IMG/VR virus record: IMGVR_UViG_3300001765_000052
Reading direction: 5' to 3' (one strand)
From: a virus
Length of the DNA: 64,000 nucleotides
The translations under genes were made by a program, and so were the position numbers. Each line of letters starts with the position of its first letter. The stretch's first letter is position 1. The notes below the pieces were generated by a model. That model searched no databases, had not been told where the DNA came from, and saw nothing but the letters and a program-made list of their open reading frames with translations. Shown piece by piece: positions 15,367 to 26,109 of this stretch.

Positions 15367-15401
15367 CTAGAATTTTTCGGTCATATATAATTAATGTGAA
15401 T
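15367..15401 (+). promoter_or_regulatory. Early promoter motif
   Basis: ctagaatttttcggtcatatataattaatgtgaat; same family as 30314, 33034, 33920, 40711, 60779. Confidence 0.65.
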
Positions 15402-15680
15402 ATGGGGTAAACCTGAACTATCCTTTGGAAATGAGATGTAACTTTTATCTAAAACTGATTAAAGTGTTTATCAAAACTTCCCTACTGGTCTATCAAGACA
15501 TCCGTATTCTGAATGCTAACTAAAGATCGGGATATCAGTTAGTAAAAATGTTTGCCAGTATTCTAAGCAACATGCTTATAGAAACTGCGCCCCGATATTA
15601 GCCTGAGAAACTTAATACGGGAAAAGACTCTCCTGCAGTACATTCCCCTAAAAAGGAATGTACTGTGGAAGATTTTTTTT
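15400..15680 (+). ncRNA. Candidate structured ncRNA (or small-peptide mRNA)
   Basis: Lies between an early promoter and a strong terminator; several hairpins; longest noted ORF only 30 codons (15431-15523). Confidence 0.4.
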
Positions 15681-15688
15681 TATTTTTT
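15633..15688 (+). terminator. Rho-independent terminator, probably bidirectional
   Basis: ctgcagtacattcc / ggaatgtactgtgg then long T run. Confidence 0.8.
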
Positions 15689-16171
15689 ATTCATTGTATC
15701 TAAAATTTCACTTGTTTTATCATACTCTTTTTGTAACCTATTTGTACAATCTGCCATGATATATGTTGCGATATCGTGAGGTAAATCAAGGTAATCTAAT
15801 AAAGATAAACCATAATGCGAATAGACTTTTCTATCTGCATATAGTTTAATTAATTCATATAGTCTACTTCCATCGCAGATATTTTCTGCGTTATGTAAAG
15901 CTATACTAGATAACGGTCGTTTGAGATTAGGGTCTGAAATACTTTGTTCATATATCTCTTGTGAGATATAATCATGTATACCATTCGAATTCTCATACGC
16001 TTGTTGTAATATAGCTTTACTAGAAACAATATCTGTTTTTTTTACCCCTTCAAGTACTTTAAATAATAAGCAATCTTCTTCAATTTCCAGACCGAAGTCA
16101 GCTTGACTTACATGTACCTCATTTAACGTGCTTCGATCTTTTTCAGGCGTGAAATGAGTAATGTAAAAAAA
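15680..16171 (-). CDS. Start-less 163-codon ORF (gp76-like); probable -1 frameshift extension of upstream gene (tail chaperone GT-like)
   Basis: Hand-translated, no stops: FFYITHF...RPLSSIALHNAEN...YGLSLLDYLDLPHD...MNKK*; no ATG/GTG/TTG until the last 26 codons; begins at T-TTT-TTT heptamer 16171-16165. Confidence 0.75.
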   Translation of the reverse strand, partial: FFYITHFTPEKDRSTLNEVHVSQADFGLEIEEDCLLFKVLEGVKKTDIVSSKAILQQAYENSNGIHDYISQEIYEQSISDPNLKRPLSSIALHNAENICDGSRLYELIKLYADRKVYSHYGLSLLDYLDLPHDIATYIMADCTNRLQKEYDKTSEILDTMNKK

Positions 16172-17646
16172 GTTTGAATAACATCAATCGGAATTAATTT
16201 AGGATGATGAACATGTTCTTTTGAAGATGTTTGTTCTCCACCGCAATTCGGACATTTGAATGTAGGAATTGCAACTAATGAGATAACAGAATTATCTAAG
16301 TACTCCGCCACCATTTTCATAAAATTTGTTCTAAGTTTATCACTAGCAGTTAGATCATTAAGAACTTCTTCTATTGTATCGATATCATCGTAGACATCGC
16401 CAGCTACTTCAATTGATTCTACAAAATGTGCATATTGGCGCATTGCTGTAGCTTTTGCTTGAGATAGTAAATACTCATCTCGTTTGGCTTCATCTTTAAT
16501 TAAAGATTTACTATAGTTTTCTTCAATTCCGTTTACCCACCTATATCCAGAATCAATATGTTCCACGATCGTAGGTAGTTTAATAATCATGCTTACTGAA
16601 TCAGATAAATCTATTTTCTTTTTTTGTCCACGGATAAAATCATCAGTGTACTTTTTAACACTGTCTACATTCATACTACCACGCTGACGTTTTGTCATGT
16701 GGTTTACTTGGTACTGTGTTAGAGATGATGAATCAGTCCAAAGTAATTTAGATAAATCTAATTTTTCTTTAATAATGTAATTGCATTTCTCTGGATCAGA
16801 AATACAGGGTCTTGTATACTGAAAACCATTAGAATATACACTGCAAGCTAGACCCCAAAATAAAACCGATAAATCAGGTGCTTTAATGTATTTACGAATA
16901 TCGTCGCCTTCTGCAACAGCTAGCGATGACTCGTACATATTCTCTATGCAAAAATCTAATAGCACTTTCGATGCATAAGAAGTATTATTAGAGAATAATA
17001 GACCATAACTAGATCTACCGAGCGAGATTTTTTCAGATGTAATTTGACGATACAATTCTAACAAATCTCCTTCACTAGGTGCTTTAATTCTGATCCAGAA
17101 ACCACTATGCCATAAAGGTATATTAAATATTACACCTAATTTTAAAGCTTGTCTGATGCGTAATCTAGCTCTTTCTCCTGTAAACTTTGTACCATCATTT
17201 GTTTTAAATGATGGAGCACTAGCAGTTAGAACACCTTGAGGTGAAGTTACACCTTGAACAAAATCAGAGTCGTCTCTATCTACAGTCCTATTTAAACCAT
17301 CACCATAGACAACTGTTTCCATACCAGCATTAACTGCACCAATCCACTCTTTACCTTGCTGTGTTTCAGCAAGTCGTGTTCGTGGGATATCTTTGATAAT
17401 TGCTTCTGTTATTTTACCTGTATTTGCTGGTAAAAAAGCTGTTTCATTATCATAACTAAACTCATCTTCTAATTTTTCAGAGTACGGAACTTGGACAATA
17501 AAGTTTTGTTTGGTTTTTAATGGTTCAACTGTAGATGTTTTTTCTTCAGTTATAATTGGTTGTTTTTCAATTAACGGAATTGGTTCTTCTTTTTCGGATA
17601 ACGTAAATGGTGCCGGTGTTTCTTGAATATCTGGAGTGTTGATCAT
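16123..17646 (-). CDS. Conserved protein (phiKZ gp77-like); putative tail/baseplate assembly chaperone (T4 gp26-like features)
   Basis: 507 aa; IRIKAPS..DL..LFWGL...C.....C and C-terminal CPNC. Confidence 0.6.
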   Translation of the reverse strand: MINTPDIQETPAPFTLSEKEEPIPLIEKQPIITEEKTSTVEPLKTKQNFIVQVPYSEKLEDEFSYDNETAFLPANTGKITEAIIKDIPRTRLAETQQGKEWIGAVNAGMETVVYGDGLNRTVDRDDSDFVQGVTSPQGVLTASAPSFKTNDGTKFTGERARLRIRQALKLGVIFNIPLWHSGFWIRIKAPSEGDLLELYRQITSEKISLGRSSYGLLFSNNTSYASKVLLDFCIENMYESSLAVAEGDDIRKYIKAPDLSVLFWGLACSVYSNGFQYTRPCISDPEKCNYIIKEKLDLSKLLWTDSSSLTQYQVNHMTKRQRGSMNVDSVKKYTDDFIRGQKKKIDLSDSVSMIIKLPTIVEHIDSGYRWVNGIEENYSKSLIKDEAKRDEYLLSQAKATAMRQYAHFVESIEVAGDVYDDIDTIEEVLNDLTASDKLRTNFMKMVAEYLDNSVISLVAIPTFKCPNCGGEQTSSKEHVHHPKLIPIDVIQTFFTLLISRLKKIEAR

Positions 17647-18236
17647 TCTGATGCCTCAGTATTTTGGTTAATTTCTGGTAATGTAACTACATTTGGTTGA
17701 TAAGAATTTTCGCTGATATTAGTTGTTTTAATCTCAACATCAGTAACAACATTTGGGTTCATTAAATTCATTTCATTATCTACTAGTTCATTAATTATCC
17801 CTATTTGTTCTAATATATGTGCCATTGTTGGTATTATATTAGCTTCATAAATCTCTAATGCATCTGCATATTCTCCGTGTATATGCAATAATTCAATATG
17901 TTCATCGGGTGTAACTGTACCTCCTAATTTATCAGAATGCTTAGCATATATAGAAGTTAATCTATCGCTATGCTCAGCTATATCTTTTGTAAGGATTGTA
18001 ATATTATTAGCTAAAGCTATAGGGTCATCAAGTTTTTTTACTTTTGTTTCATCTTTAACAAAATCAACTAGATTATCTCTTAAAGTACCCTCTACTTTTG
18101 CAATAGCTTCTACACATTGTACATAATGATTTCTTGCGTCATCCCAAAAATTGTTTGTTGGTCTATTCAATTCTAGTTCTTTTCTATTTTTATCCAACAC
18201 TCTTTTGTGTATTTTTGATAGTGATTTTGCTGCCAT
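17643..18236 (-). CDS. Hypothetical helical protein (gp78-like position)
   Basis: 197 aa; ATGA overlap with next gene. Confidence 0.65.
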   Translation of the reverse strand: MAAKSLSKIHKRVLDKNRKELELNRPTNNFWDDARNHYVQCVEAIAKVEGTLRDNLVDFVKDETKVKKLDDPIALANNITILTKDIAEHSDRLTSIYAKHSDKLGGTVTPDEHIELLHIHGEYADALEIYEANIIPTMAHILEQIGIINELVDNEMNLMNPNVVTDVEIKTTNISENSYQPNVVTLPEINQNTEASE

Positions 18237-20482: not shown

Positions 20483-20923
20483 ATGACTCTACAGTATACG
20501 GGACCAATCTCATTAAATGACATTAATGTTGAGTTGGTTCTCAATGGTTTAATACGATTGAGTGGGACTCCATGTAGAGATCTACTCGATGTCCCAATAG
20601 GAACTATATCTTTATCTAATGCATACGGAAAAAGCAGAAGAACATCTACATATAGATTAAATGCAAATGCAAATACTGTAACGGAAAGGGACGTAATAAC
20701 ATTTACTGTTATTACGACCAATGTCCCGAATTATACATTACTACACTGGATGCTTACACCTAACAGTGTAGCAAACAGTGTAGATTTTACAGGTATACCA
20801 ATCGGTGATGTAAGAATAGTGAATAACAGAGCTGTTTTTACTTTATCTTTATTAGAAGATATGCTTACAGAAGGTTTAGAATCTTTTACAATTAGTCTAT
20901 ATGAAATATTAGGTACACCTTAG
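20483..20923 (+). CDS. N-terminal part of giant Calx-beta/Ig-like repeat virion protein (frameshifted)
   Basis: MTLQYTGPISLNDIN..ISLSNAYGKS head followed by the first repeat ending D.LTEG.ESF. Confidence 0.75.
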   Translation: MTLQYTGPISLNDINVELVLNGLIRLSGTPCRDLLDVPIGTISLSNAYGKSRRTSTYRLNANANTVTERDVITFTVITTNVPNYTLLHWMLTPNSVANSVDFTGIPIGDVRIVNNRAVFTLSLLEDMLTEGLESFTISLYEILGTP

Positions 20924-23900
20924 TTATCACTATTACAGATAGTAGTACAGCAGAAGTTCTTGCTCCACCACCACAAGCTACGTATTTAATTACTGCTAGT
21001 GCATCTAGTGTAGATGAGGGTAGTGTAATTGTATTTAGTGTAGTAACAACACATGTAGAAGATGGGACTCTCCTCAATTACACTGCTACTGGTACTATAA
21101 ATTCAAGTGATGTTTCATCAGTTAGTGGAGTAATATCTATAGTAAATAACAAAGCATTATTTAGCATAGATACATTTGCAGATATAACAACTGAGGGTTC
21201 TGAAACATTTATGTTAAAACTATATTTGGGTGGTGAATTAGTAGCCACTACTTCTAATATAGTTATCAACGATACATCTACAAAAATAATTAGCACACTT
21301 CCAACATATTCAGTTGTAGCAAATACATCTAATGTTAATGAAGGTGGCGTTGTTACATTTAGTGTAATTACTGAGAATATATTAAATGGAACTACATTTA
21401 ATTACTTAGTTGTGGGTAATGCAAATAATACAGATCTTACACCTATGTCCGGATCTGTTATTGTGATTAATAACAGGGGTGTATTTAGTGTTGATACATT
21501 GGCAGATAATCTAACTGAAGGTGCAGAAACCTTTATGGTTAAGTTATACATGGGTACTCAATTAGTAGCCACATCAGCTAATGTCACTATTAATGATAGT
21601 AGCTTATCACCTGAATATCTAGGCGCAGTTTACACTGTTATGGCTAGTGTTACAAACGTAGATGAAGGTGGCGTCGTATTGTTTTACGTCGTTACTAGAA
21701 ATATCCCAGATGGCACTGTTTTCAACTATGGTGTATCAGGTAGTTTTCAAGATGTGGATCTATCGCCCACTGCAGGTGTAATTACAGTTAACAATAATCG
21801 CGGTGTGTTTAGTGTTGACACAAATGTAGATTATTTAGCAGGTCTGAAAATATTCATGGCTAAATTGTATTTAGGTGGTGAATTAGTAGCAGGATCAGCA
21901 AATGTTAATATTATCCAACAGCCAGTCCCGACAGCAGCACCTACTGATGAACCTACTGAAGCACCCGCTAAGAATTATGGAATTAGAGCTAATGTCACAA
22001 GTGTCAATGAAGGGCAAAATGTTATTTTCTATGTGACTACAAAATATGTTACAGATGATACAGTCCTACATTACGATTTAACTGGAACAATAGATAACTT
22101 AGATGTATCAATTACAGCTGGTGACGTAACTATAATTAATAATAAAGGTTTATTTACAGTAGCAATAATTTTAGATCTTAAGACAGAGGGTTTGGAATCA
22201 TTTATAGGTAACCTATACGTAGATAATGCACTCGTTGCAGCAACAGCTAATATTACAATTAATGATAATAGTGTAACATATACAGATCCTCCTACTGATG
22301 CACCTACTGATGCACCTACTGATGCACCTACTGATACACCTTATTATTTAATAGATTGTAATAACGCAGTACAAGAGGGTTCACAATTAACCGTAACATT
22401 TACGACTAATGTAAATGATCCAACAGCAGTTTACATGTGGGAAATAGTACCAAGTAATGGCTTATCTCCATTAGATTTAAATAAATCGACTGGGCAAGTA
22501 TTATTTTCGTCTGGCCAATTTATTACAAACATAGGTGCTACAGCTGACGATGGTGTTGATCCAGATGAAACATTTATAATTTCATTAAAGAAGAATGGCA
22601 TTATTATTATTACTAGTAGTGTGATTACAGTAACAGAGAAAACAGTGAATAAAGTAGTTACTAAATTAACTATTGATCCAACAAATGATATAAATGAAGG
22701 TGAAAGCTTTACTTGTAATGCAGAAACTACTGGTTATGCAGATGGTACTACGTTGTCTTGGAATATTACATATGGAGGCGAGTTTGTTGATGGTGCTAAG
22801 ACCGGGGATGAAACTATAAATAATAACGCAGCTTCATGGACTATACAAACAAAGAGCGATGATATTACTTCTGGTAAAAAACAAATATCTATAAAATGCG
22901 GTACTATTACTACAAAAACATATGTCTTATATACAACTCCAGTAGTTGTACCTACTGTAATAGATCTAATTATTAGACCTACATCAATATCAGAAGGCGG
23001 TAGAGTTACATGTGAAGCAACAACCATTGGTTATGTTAATGGTTCTAAATTAAGTTGGACAATATCAGGCGATACAAGTTTTATTGCAGCAGGATATAGT
23101 AGTGGTAATGAAAATGTATATAATGATTCAGCAACATGGGAGATTGAAGCAACAACCGATACTACTACGAGTGGAACTAAATCGGTCACAGTGAATGCTG
23201 GTGGTATTACAAATGGTTCTTCGGCATCTTTTTCTATTCAATATACCGCAACTGCTCCGCCTCCAGATGCACCACAGTGGGAACTAACTCCAAACGATAC
23301 AGTTATAGATGAAGGCGGTACAGCTAATTACGTATTCAAAACAAAAACAGGATCAAGTTCAGGTGCTGGTGTTGGTTATTCATGGCTTCTTACAGGTCAA
23401 ACTAGTTCTGGAAATAGTACAGATATATTTGGTAGTTCTTTTGGCACTAATCTTACTTACACAGGATCAAATGCTATTATTTCTATAAAAGCTACCGAAG
23501 ACATGAAAACGGAAAGTCAGGAAACATTTATATTAACCGTTACACCAGCTATAGGTAATGTATGTCAAGCAGGTCTTATTATTACAGATACTAGTACAGC
23601 AGCACCACCAAGTCCAACAGTACCACAATGGACATTAACGCCAGATAATGTTGATATAAATGAAGGTCAAAGTGCTGTATTTACACTCTCTACTAGTGCA
23701 GGATCCGGCTCAGGTGAAGGTGTACAATATACTATTGAACTTAGTGGCGTATCAAATACTTCTGATTTAGATGGTTCGATTGTAACTATGAAAAACTACT
23801 CCGGCCCATCAGATACAATTACAATACCGATTAAAGCAGATATGTTAACAGAGGGCAATGAATATTTTATGCTCACCGTTAGACCCGCAGTAGGTAATAC

Positions 23901-26109
23901 AGTCACATCTTCAATCAATATCAAAGATACCAGTACAGCAGCACCAGCAGCACTTACTTGGTCACTAACTCCATCTCAATCATCTGTAGACGAAGGTTCA
24001 GATGCAGCATTTCAATTTGGAAAAATATCAGGAGATAGCACTGGTGTAACTTACACATGGGCTGTTACTGGTGTAAGTGCTAGTGATATCACAAACGGAT
24101 TATTAGCATCGAGTACACCTATAACGTTTACTAATAACGTTGTTATTATAATACCAATCAAATCGGATGTTACAACTGAAGGTGCTGAAACGTTAACCCT
24201 AACTGTTACTCCATCTAGAGGTAATCCGGTATCAGCATCGGTTACAATTAATGATACTAGTAGAAGCAGCGGAACTCCCCCACCATCATACACTGAAACT
24301 TTAATTTTAACTCAAGCATTGACTAAAACTAGCGCAGTAACAACTGATAAGGTAGGAATTATATTAACAATAAATGGACAGATAGATTCTAATACAGGGT
24401 TAACTACTTCAAGTAGTCGGTGGTATCGACTACTTGTTAAAAACACAGCTAAATTTGGCAGTCCAATAGTTGATGATTGGGCAATCTCATTGGCCAATGG
24501 TATACAATATACATCCTATCCGCCTTATAGTTTTAGTATCAATGACGCTACAGCTACAAATGGTGGGCCAGGTCGATATTCTATTGAAATAAGAAAAGCA
24601 GCACCAACTGGGACATTAGGTGACCAAGTCGGAATTACCCAATACCTCGATGTTTCAGCTGGTGCAGAAACAGCTGTGCTTACAATATCAGGTCCTTCAA
24701 CAGTTACAGCCGGAAATCAAATTACATTCAAAGGAAGATCTACAAAAACAATGTCCGCTAGATGGGGGATATCCTACGTGACAGTTGGAGGTGGTAATTC
24801 TATATTTACACCTAACGAGGGTACCATATCACTTGTAGCAGGTGTAGATCAAACGTTTTCATCGACATTGTCCAGTAGTGCCGGTAATGGAATTGCTTGT
24901 AATGGTACATTGGAATCTGCCGATGCTAATATAACAGCTACTAAGGTATACACACCCTTCACAACTGTAGCTAGTGGTGGTGGTACAATTACATATAACA
25001 TTCAAGTATCTTCAACGAATATTGCAGAAGGCGAACCATTAACTATTGTAGTAACATCTAATGATACTAGTGGTTCTGCATATGGAGCATACGCTATGCC
25101 GGTGAGTAGTAATATAACAATGGAAGATTTTGGGACTAGTCCAACTACACCATTTTCATCACCTATTGGTACATATAAAACTCTCGTTAATGGAAGTATT
25201 ACTGATACTATTTATATAGTTAAAGACAATAAAACCGAAGGTCCAGAGTCATTTGTGATAGCTCTTATAAAACAAGGATCAGCGACTGTACTCAAAACTA
25301 GTGACACAATTACTATCAGAGATACTAGTCTAGATACCCCTGTTAATAATACATATGAAATATTAGTAAACAACAGTACTTCTGATATAACTGTCGATGA
25401 ATTAGACGTTGCAAATATAACAATTAAAGTAAATAGTAATGATACAACTGGTCGATCATTTGGGATAGGTGTATACAATGTTGTTGGTAATGTAACTGTC
25501 AATGATTTATTACTGCCAGGTGCTGGCACTGGTAGTCAATTTAGTGGCGGTAGCTTTACATGTACAATAGGTATTAGAGCAGACGCGGTCACTGAACCCG
25601 CTGTTGAATCGTTCAGGCCATGTATCTACCTTATGAGTAACCCTAGTGTTAATATGACTTTAGTTCGAACTGCACCTAAAATCACTATTAATGATACTAG
25701 TAAATCAGCTGGGTTAGGTACTTTTACAGTAGGTTTAAATGGATCTAGTAGTAATACAGTGACTGTAGATGCAGATATGAATTTTGTATTGGATATATAC
25801 CCATCTGGCCACACTCCCGGTAGTGTAATTCAAATAGTAATGGCTAACTCTACTTTAGGTTATACTCATGACTTAGAAGTACGTACTGGTGCAGACAGAG
25901 CTTTAGGTAACGGTGGTGTTACTGTATTCAATGTTACATTGGGAAGTGGAACACATCAAACTGTTACTCTATATGCAAGTGGAACTGGAGCTGCAGGGTT
26001 TAATGGATTCACATTTAAATTACAACTGCAGAATCCTTCTAACGGAGCGGCTCTGGCAACATCAAATTGGGTAATTGTAAATCCACCTAACGGTAATAGT
26101 GGCGTTTAA
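20905..26109 (+). CDS. Giant Calx-beta/Ig-like repeat adhesin/fibre protein, main part
   Basis: Frame of ORF 21211..26109 is open from 20905; many ~100-aa repeats (S.V.EG...D..TEG.E.F...VTINDTS) with P/T-rich linkers. Confidence 0.8.
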   Translation, partial: NIRYTLVITITDSSTAEVLAPPPQATYLITASASSVDEGSVIVFSVVTTHVEDGTLLNYTATGTINSSDVSSVSGVISIVNNKALFSIDTFADITTEGSETFMLKLYLGGELVATTSNIVINDTSTKIISTLPTYSVVANTSNVNEGGVVTFSVITENILNGTTFNYLVVGNANNTDLTPMSGSVIVINNRGVFSVDTLADNLTEGAETFMVKLYMGTQLVATSANVTINDSSLSPEYLGAVYTVMASVTNVDEGGVVLFYVVTRNIPDGTVFNYGVSGSFQDVDLSPTAGVITVNNNRGVFSVDTNVDYLAGLKIFMAKLYLGGELVAGSANVNIIQQPVPTAAPTDEPTEAPAKNYGIRANVTSVNEGQNVIFYVTTKYVTDDTVLHYDLTGTIDNLDVSITAGDVTIINNKGLFTVAIILDLKTEGLESFIGNLYVDNALVAATANITINDNSVTYTDPPTDAPTDAPTDAPTDTPYYLIDCNNAVQEGSQLTVTFTTNVNDPTAVYMWEIVPSNGLSPLDLNKSTGQVLFSSGQFITNIGATADDGVDPDETFIISLKKNGIIIITSSVITVTEKTVNKVVTKLTIDPTNDINEGESFTCNAETTGYADGTTLSWNITYGGEFVDGAKTGDETINNNAASWTIQTKSDDITSGKKQISIKCGTITTKTYVLYTTPVVVPTVIDLIIRPTSISEGGRVTCEATTIGYVNGSKLSWTISGDTSFIAAGYSSGNENVYNDSATWEIEATTDTTTSGTKSVTVNAGGITNGSSASFSIQYTATAPPPDAPQWELTPNDTVIDEGGTANYVFKTKTGSSSGAGVGYSWLLTGQTSSGNSTDIFGSSFGTNLTYTGSNAIISIKATEDMKTESQETFILTVTPAIGNVCQAGLIITDTSTAAPPSPTVPQWTLTPDNVDINEGQSAVFTLSTSAGSGSGEGVQYTIELSGVSNTSDLDGSIVTMKNYSGPSDTITIPIKADMLTEGNEYFMLTVRPAVGNTVTSSINIKDTSTAAPAALTWSLTPSQSSVDEGSDAAFQFGKISGDSTGVTYTWAVTGVSASDITNGLLASSTPITFTNNVVIIIPIKSDVTTEGAETLTLTVTPSRGNPVSASVTINDTSRSSGTPPPSYTETLILTQALTKTSAVTTDKVGIILTINGQIDSNTGLTTSSSRWYRLLVKNTAKFGSPIVDDWAISLANGIQYTSYPPYSFSINDATATNGGPGRYSIEIRKAAPTGTLGDQVGITQYLDVSAGAETAVLTISGPSTVTAGNQITFKGRSTKTMSARWGISYVTVGGGNSIFTPNEGTISLVAGVDQTFSSTLSSSAGNGIACNGTLESADANITATKVYTPFTTVASGGGTITYNIQVSSTNIAEGEPLTIVVTSNDTSGSAYGAYAMPVSSNITMEDFGTSPTTPFSSPIGTYKTLVNGSITDTIYIVKDNKTEGPESFVIALIKQGSATVLKTSDTITIRDTSLDTPVNNTYEILVNNSTSDITVDELDVANITIKVNSNDTTGRSFGIGVYNVVGNVTVNDLLLPGAGTGSQFSGGSFTCTIGIRADAVTEPAVESFRPCIYLMSNPSVNMTLVRTAPKITINDTSKSAGLGTFTVGLNGSSSNTVTVDADMNFVLDIYPSGHTPGSVIQIVMANSTLGYTHDLEVRTGADRALGNGGVTVFNVTLGSGTHQTVTLYASGTGAAGFNGFTFKLQLQNPSNGAALATSNWVIVNPPNGNSGV
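22291..22335 (+). repeat. 12-bp tandem repeat encoding PTDA linker
   Basis: (cctactgatgca)x3 + cctactgat. Confidence 0.9.

Follow-up and report, generated by a model that had tools for sequence, protein, structure and literature searches.

A conserved slippery T-run in the phiKZ gp77 gene family points to a probable programmed -1 frameshift and a predicted fusion protein in phiKZ-like jumbo phages

How is a conserved reading frame expressed when it has no usable start codon? The question is raised by a locus on the minus strand of the IMG/VR virus record IMGVR_UViG_3300001765_000052, of which a stretch of 64,000 nucleotides (the window) was analysed. Here the end of a gene for a 507-residue protein (16123..17646, TAA included), a member of the phiKZ gp77 / 201phi2-1 gp136 family (phrog_4585), is overlapped in the -1 frame by an open reading frame (ORF) of 167 codons from stop to stop, which ends with TAA at 15682-15680 and contains no ATG, GTG or TTG before codon 142. 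A first start codon as late as this is unique to the -1 ORF among the 56 stop-to-stop ORFs of at least 120 codons in the window. The 507-residue gene ends GTT ATT CAA ACT TTT TTT ACA TTA CTC ATT TCA CGC CTG AAA AAG ATC GAA GCA CGT TAA (stop at 16125-16123), and 13 codons short of this stop it carries the heptamer T_TTT_TTT (16165..16171), which is in phase as ACT TTT TTT, with ACT at 16173-71 and TTT TTT at 16170-65. Counted from the first TTT of the run, the -1 frame extends over 163 codons (16171-15683; 15680..16171 with the TAA), and it is shut by a TGA four codons 5′ of the heptamer (16184..16186). A preliminary description of this DNA had proposed that the start-less ORF belongs to a phiKZ-like phage and is reached by a -1 shift at T_TTT_TTT; its coordinates, the phase of the run and the position of the TGA are all exact, and conservation across all the relatives examined lends the proposal strong support. 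We regard recoding at the T-run as very probable, and a programmed -1 ribosomal frameshift giving a predicted 655-residue fusion as the likely account of the locus; that the two isoforms serve as assembly chaperones is only slightly more likely than not.

Homopolymers of seven or more are frequent in the window, which has 31% GC and carries 13 such T-runs and 24 such A-runs; the T-run by itself is thus weak evidence, and support must come from relatives. Fifty-five IMG/VR loci were fetched, with an alignment of 37 family members, and nine named phages were also inspected. The 59 aligned loci are the window, 54 of the IMG/VR loci, pEa_SNUABM_54, Viktualia, 201phi2-1 and phiKZ, and four further named phages (PhiPA3, RAY, AgentSmith and FLC9) stand beside them; clustering by the upstream protein, with a cut-off of 50% identity, gave 33 lineages. 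Numbers with the prefix L denote single loci. In 59/59 aligned loci and in the four further phages, the ORF that follows the gp77-like gene lies in the -1 frame. This frame is open in all of them from the T-run, or from a point before it, past the zero-frame stop, and the downstream ORF has 123-174 codons. Stops in the -1 frame are found 0-13 nucleotides 5′ of the run in many loci and 3′ of it in none. Given each gene's own rate of -1 stops, the chance that this frame would be free of stops between the run and the zero-frame stop in all 33 lineages is ~1e-27.

The run itself is also conserved. An in-phase T_TTT_TTN is present in 30 of the 33 lineages (L056-58 included), even at 58-59% GC, and takes the forms NNT TTT TTT, NTT TTT TTC or NTT TTT TTT, or has TTG or TTA as its last codon. 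T is the third base of the codon 5′ of the Phe pair regardless of the residue, which may be Thr, Val, Ala, Asn, Ile, Leu, Ser, Tyr, His or Gly. One phage of 59% GC uses ATT TTT TTT at the site, while elsewhere in the same gene none of 29 Ile codons ends in T and none of 14 Phe codons is TTT. Calculated over 29 lineages from each gene's own codon usage, the joint probability of the synonymous choices made at the site is ~1e-37. In pEa_SNUABM_54 and the Bacillus phage AgentSmith the residues are Val-Phe-Leu, and these are still encoded by T7 (GTT TTT TTG or GTT TTT TTA), which speaks for the nucleotides, and not Phe-Phe, as the object of selection. The site of phiKZ reads TCA ACT TTT TTT ACT. 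The -1 frame there has 171 open codons, and the annotation (PHIKZ076.4) covers just the final 81. In L056-58 the site is GGT TTT TTT, located 118 nucleotides ahead of a longer zero-frame tail. A second candidate site, G_AAA_AAG (16138..16144), is indeed present and in phase in the window, but it is not conserved, since close relatives have CTC AGG AAG or ATA CAG AGG instead, and it was dropped.

The proteins encoded by the -1 frame share a nearly invariant HV..FG motif shortly 3′ of the zero-frame stop. In the window this motif is represented by VHVSQADFG (16091..16117), which lies 5′ of any usable start, and conserved coding sequence (LNEVHVSQADFGLEIEEDCLLFKVLEGVKK...) precedes any start both in the window and in its 80%-identical relative. 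The first ATG, GTG or TTG after the run is past the FG motif in 39/59 loci, and the first ATG is past it in 50/59. In L056-58 the motif falls within the overlap, with no start between run and motif. The starts assigned by gene callers are correspondingly variable, being scattered over profile positions 1 to 60 in the best 150 of 1801 representatives. The comparison of homologues suggested at the outset thus found the slippery run kept and most of the downstream ORFs devoid of a usable independent start. Without a usable start of its own, the -1 domain of the window phage would be makeable only as a fusion.

A mechanism is proposed in which the majority of ribosomes would read ACT TTT TTT ACA and continue to the TAA at 16125-16123, giving the 507-residue short form that ends in a conserved helix (FFTLLISRLKKIEAR). 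In a minority of cases, the two Phe-tRNAs on U_UUU_UUU (16171-16165) would re-pair one base back and the next codon would be UAC; the slipped ribosomes would then translate 161 further codons to the TAA at 15682-15680 and produce a long form of 494 + 161 = 655 residues. Between 16123 and 16164 the two frames overlap, the zero frame encoding the conserved C-terminal helix TLLISRLKKIEAR* and the -1 frame the linker YITHFTPEKDRSTL, and the long form would accordingly have its last 13 residues swapped for this linker and a conserved helical domain of ~140 residues. The junction peptide predicted from the window sequence is ...QTFFYITHFTPEK..., and the predicted trans-frame peptides are LIPIDVIQTFFYITHFTPEK in the window phage and, at the junction in phiKZ, ...STFFYFGGLEVKPDGVVNDLR.

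Both products appear to be needed, because both the zero-frame tail and the extension are conserved. The zero-frame tail after the run is conserved through its final Arg, as is the position of the stop, and it forms a helix in the structural model. The -1 domain constitutes a family of 1801 representative clusters in an exhaustive profile search. No natural in-frame fusion of the two parts was found among the best 150 of these 1801 representatives or in a search for longer proteins. One protein considered as a fused form, P0093 (671 residues), was rejected because its extra length is N-terminal and not C-terminal. Two matches in the BFVD structure database, J7KJQ2 of Erwinia phage phiEaH2 (686 residues) and A0A8S5P0M5 (687 residues), are family members ~180 residues longer than usual.

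Several observations weigh against a programmed ribosomal frameshift. No conserved RNA structure was found in the 75 nucleotides 3′ of the run (mean folding z -0.3, 33 loci), and no upstream element resembling a Shine-Dalgarno (SD) sequence was seen; the efficiency of the shift may be low in consequence. Phage sites of the G/GT type, named after the lambda tail proteins G and GT, are not known to require a stimulatory element, and what is generally known of such sites, together with the lack of a stimulator here, suggests a slip of low and fixed efficiency. Sites are also weaker in some relatives. PhiPA3, FLC9, L012 and L045 have G_TTT_TTT, the Noxifer group has G_TTT_TTC, and L030/31 have CTT TTT ATT. 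In the clade of L028, L033 and L036 the site is GTT TTT ATC, ACC or TCC, and 3/3 members have an ATG at +29, just ahead of FG; this looks like decay of the site and gain of an independent start in a single event. All of the weaker sites should still permit a single Phe-tRNA to slip on T_TTT or T_TTC. Finally, some GTG, TTG or ATG does occur ahead of or near the FG motif in about one third of the loci, and certain phages may therefore also make a free form.

The same 655-residue fusion would arise from transcriptional slippage, in which stuttering of the RNA polymerase (of phage or host) on the A7 template would add one U to some of the transcripts. The signal is a homopolymer of 6-8 T, and one added U gives a -1 reading, which matches the universal -1 relation. 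Chimalliviruses use unusual multisubunit polymerases of their own, and the failure to find an RNA stimulator of ribosomal shifting in 33 loci also counts in favour of slippage. However, bacterial sites of transcriptional slippage usually need runs of nine or more, and the runs observed here are shorter: T8 is the longest run in 63 loci, although slippage would improve with length. In six lineages the run is only T6, and yet the ribosomal phase NNT TTT TTC is kept, and both phase and length fit X_XXY_YYZ. Slippage by the polymerase is thus an unlikely source of the fusion, and the slip is probably made by the ribosome.

It is also conceivable that no recoding takes place and that the -1 ORF is a separate gene, translated from an ATT, CTG or ATA start or by termination-reinitiation where the gp77-like gene ends, with the T-run kept for the sake of Phe-Phe alone. 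PHROG and the gene callers do treat the ORF as a free protein, 201phi2-1 gp135 has a TTG that overlaps the upstream stop, RP12 (L038) has an ATG at +2, and candidate starts precede the FG motif in the third of loci mentioned above; Phe-Phe is furthermore conserved as protein and is present even in T4 gp26. A separate gene would leave unexplained why no lineage has a -1 stop between the run and the zero-frame stop (1e-27), why a T precedes the Phe pair whatever the residue and genes that elsewhere avoid TTT have it here (1e-37), why the Val-Phe-Leu variants retain T7, and why -1 residues are conserved within the overlap of L056-58. Neither an SD-like motif nor a common near-cognate start was found in the window and its 80%-identical relative. 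We consider a separate gene improbable and retain a -1 frameshift by the ribosome as the explanation of the locus. An artefact or decay, that is, a single ORF broken in two by a homopolymer error, or a pseudogene now lacking its start, is scarcely credible even though such runs are error-prone and the window is an assembly from an uncultured phage: the same -1 layout recurs in 62 other independently sequenced loci (phiKZ, 201phi2-1, RAY and PhiPA3 among them), which excludes a sequencing error and with it the earlier caveat that the reads might hold T8, the zero-frame tail and its stop are conserved, an in-frame fused form is missing from the best 150 of the 1801 representatives, and the -1 domain is conserved throughout its family.

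Existing annotation reflects the absence of a start. The -1 ORF is truncated in the GenBank records of phiKZ, pEa_SNUABM_54, Viktualia, AgentSmith and FLC9, and in 201phi2-1 the annotation of gp135 begins at the TTG that overlaps the gp136 stop. In Erwinia phage RAY (L064 2406-2954), gp266 is annotated from an ATG 136 nucleotides inside gp267 and 5′ of a T8 run, which looks like an annotator's workaround for the absent start. The metagenome representatives P0125, P0131 and P0250 are called from a -1-frame ATG immediately 5′ of the run (MFFYP..., MFFLA...), a call that implies A|TGT TTT TTT in the zero frame. No frameshift is annotated in the GenBank records of the named phages examined, and full-text literature searches returned no description of one in phiKZ-like phages; mentions of 'gp77' among the matches were discarded, as they follow the numbering of other phages.

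Profile searches assigned the 507-residue protein to phrog_4585 (E 6e-115) and the -1 translation to phrog_12109 (E 4e-16). A tblastn search found the 507-residue protein in 227 GenBank phage records, all of phiKZ-like jumbo phages, whose hosts are Pseudomonas, Erwinia, Salmonella, Serratia, Ralstonia, Vibrio, Klebsiella, Burkholderia, Xanthomonas and Bacillus. In these records the family bears the names 'similar to phiKZ gp77', 201phi2-1 gp136 and PhiPA3 gp074, and the -1 ORF corresponds to 201phi2-1 gp135, to PhiPA3 gp073 and to an extended phiKZ gp76.4. The neighbours in the window encode an RNA polymerase beta subunit (phrog_3015), a DNA helicase (phrog_16) and gp78/gp79-like proteins, and the gene order matches that of phiKZ and 201phi2-1. 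A blastn search of the locus against GenBank phages gave no match. No significant Pfam or NCBIfam family was found for either protein, and sequence searches of the Protein Data Bank (PDB) found nothing for either part.

Structural models were more informative for the upstream protein. Its AF2 (AlphaFold2) model has a predicted local distance difference test score (pLDDT) of 84 and a predicted template modelling (TM) score of 0.83. A Foldseek search of the PDB gave nothing at an E of 0.001 or better. In BFVD, the matches that follow its own family are T4-like models named 'baseplate hub assembly protein' or 'baseplate hub subunit' (E 2e-6 to 1e-3; TM by target 0.45-0.58), and the ESM Atlas yielded a PF12322 cluster (TM 0.64 by target over 243 aligned residues); predicted models stand on both sides of these comparisons. 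PF12322 (T4_baseplate) covers T4 gp26 and gp51, with 216 and 178 bits. Using hhalign, positions 406-472 of the family alignment (A1) were matched to residues 134-196 of gp26, the CPxCG zinc-ribbon region, with a probability of 44%. The C-terminus of T4 gp26 reads ...CPECGKTHAHVIRGLKEFFELL / ...VPIKCPECGKTHAHVIRGLKEFFELL, and its pattern IP..CPxCG...FFxLL is common to the gp77 family. The T4 gp26-like features attributed to the upstream protein in the preliminary description are thus borne out by both fold and C-terminal motif, and the models suggest that this protein is a distant, enlarged fold relative of gp26 and gp51.

Comparisons with known tail assembly chaperones (TACs) by VIA-align stayed below the noise level of the tool: YqbN (3klu) gave Z 5.4 (root-mean-square deviation 6.7, 96 residues aligned), RBSTP2171 (3fgx) Z 3.8 and the HK97 TAC (2ob9) Z 3.3, and all TAC rows fall on residues ~145-281. 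The extension is modelled as a helical domain (pLDDT 85). It gave no informative match by sequence against the PDB, Pfam and NCBIfam, and VIA-align returned only generic helical proteins (Z <=5.4). The region YGLSLLDYLDLPHD had been likened to the extensions of GT-type chaperones, and no resemblance to known T domains could be shown for it.

What might the two isoforms do? T4 gp26 and gp51 are hub assembly chaperones, and gp51 is required for assembly while being absent from the particle (Leiman et al. 2010, PMC3004832). A T4-like hub has been reported in chimalliviruses, from the structure of the Goslar virion. The records of phiKZ gp77 and 201phi2-1 gp136 carry no virion or mass-spectrometry note, while those of their neighbours do. 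A role in hub or tail assembly is a reasonable reading of these fold relatives, of the T4-like hub and of the missing virion mark, and because the upstream protein appears related to gp26 and gp51, both isoforms would be expected to act there. By analogy with lambda G and GT in the tail, the isoforms may be made in a fixed ratio and act without becoming virion parts. On the other side of the balance, the functional assignment is based on distant fold similarity between predicted models. PF12322 is reached below threshold by 4/37 family members (best E 0.002), and the 507-residue protein of the window does not match it. The gene, moreover, adjoins those for RNA polymerase and helicase and not tail genes. 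Overall, we lean modestly towards an assembly-chaperone role in baseplate-hub or tail assembly.

Further features of the locus concern its transcription and its immediate flanks. The co-oriented upstream gene (17643..18236, minus strand) encodes a phiKZ gp78-like protein of 197 residues, and its stop overlaps the start of the gp77-like gene as ATGA. From the gp77 stop through the -1 ORF to its end, a terminator scan of the window found no terminator-like site. Directly 3′ of the -1 ORF stop lies a 14-bp hairpin, CTGCAGTACATTCC...GGAATGTACTGTGG (15633..15668), which was scored as a terminator of the plus strand. It carries its T-tail on that strand, closes an ORF-poor stretch of ~280 nucleotides (15398-15681), and may also end the convergent minus-strand transcript. 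Directly 3′ of the gp77-like stop (16100-16125), the zero frame reads TAA ATG AGG TAC ATG TAA, with an AGG ahead of a mini-ORF, ATG-TAA. In the 80% relative AAGGTACATGT is kept, although the ATG there opens an ORF of 8 codons (L004 3276-3310); retention of AAGGTACATGT probably just mirrors the conserved E/K-V-H-V of the -1 frame. Elsewhere in the window, a stop-to-stop frame of 1734 codons on the plus strand (20905-26109) has its first ATG, GTG or TTG at codon 102, with ~300 nucleotides open upstream.

The nucleus-forming jumbo phages (phiKZ, 201phi2-1, PhiPA3, RAY and Goslar-like phages) have been studied intensively. Should the frameshift prove real, one of the core genes of the whole family would have a hidden product of 650-700 residues. 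The records examined annotate the locus as two unrelated hypothetical genes, the second often truncated or given a forced start, and the stand-alone gp76.4, gp135 and gp073 would in many phages not exist as annotated. What knock-out, transposon sequencing (Tn-seq) and proteomic studies have shown for both ORFs would then have to be reinterpreted, and the rule of tail assembly that two isoforms are made by a -1 frameshift would extend to a gp26/gp51-related family. phiKZ offers a tractable model, and the locus is a clean test case for gene callers that are aware of frameshifts.

Among known recoding systems, E. coli dnaX makes its tau and gamma proteins by a -1 frameshift at A_AAA_AAG (PMC7412058). 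As in dnaX, a -1 shift on a homopolymeric heptamer would fix the ratio of two isoforms. In dnaX, however, the shifted frame stops at once and gives a shorter protein, and the shift needs an upstream SD sequence and a downstream hairpin, whereas the shift proposed here would lengthen the protein by 148 residues and such stimulators were not found.

T4 offers a likeness of fold rather than of expression. The similarity to gp26 (208 residues) and gp51 (249 residues) spans residues ~155-500 of the upstream protein and includes the C-terminal ...IP..CPxCG...FFxLL motif, and gene 26 likewise gives rise to both 26 and 26′. Both T4 proteins fall short of half the size of the 507-residue protein, and their second product comes from an internal in-frame start and a paralogue, not from a frameshift. 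In gp26, FFELL is encoded with TTC TTT and the stop follows three codons on, with no extension; it thus serves as a natural control for the run. A frameshift between gp26 and gp25 was considered and ruled out, there being no T-run and a -1 frame that opens only 7 nucleotides before the stop. The start of gene 25, in the -1 frame of gene 26, shares one base with the stop of gene 26 (L062 3803-4429) and is an ordinary coupled start.

A functional parallel exists with the tail assembly chaperones of long-tailed phages, in which Xu, Hendrix and Duda reportedly described, in 2004, a conserved -1 frameshift. The slippery site of P2 gpE/gpE+E′ is T_TTT_TTG, which is also the heptamer seen in pEa_SNUABM_54. 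Like lambda gpG/gpGT and P2 gpE/gpE+E′, the gp77 locus would shift to the -1 frame at a simple slippery heptamer that lies a few codons from the end of a morphogenesis gene and would make from one locus a short form and a C-terminally extended form, the extension having neither a start of its own nor a strong RNA stimulator; the likely role, here as there, is in assembly rather than in the virion. There are also differences. The upstream protein has 507 residues and the extension 161, compared with a G protein of ~100-150 residues lengthened by a T domain of about its own size; the gp77 family matches no Pfam TAC family; and the neighbours are genes for RNA polymerase beta and helicase, whereas a gene of the G/GT type stands between those for the tail tube and the tape measure. 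The G/GT-like recoding described at the outset therefore holds as far as the way the pair works: the gp77 pair is analogous to lambda G/GT but, judged on sequence, size and gene position, does not appear to belong to that family. We offer, as a tentative speculation, that the short and long gp77 products could be the G/GT equivalent of T4-type contractile tails, with chimalliviruses using one giant gene and a frameshift to make the two related chaperones, for the hub or the tape measure, that T4 obtains from the paralogues gp26 and gp51 (plus gp26′), in which case the hub chaperones of T4 and the lambda-type TACs might form one functional class that needs two isoforms.

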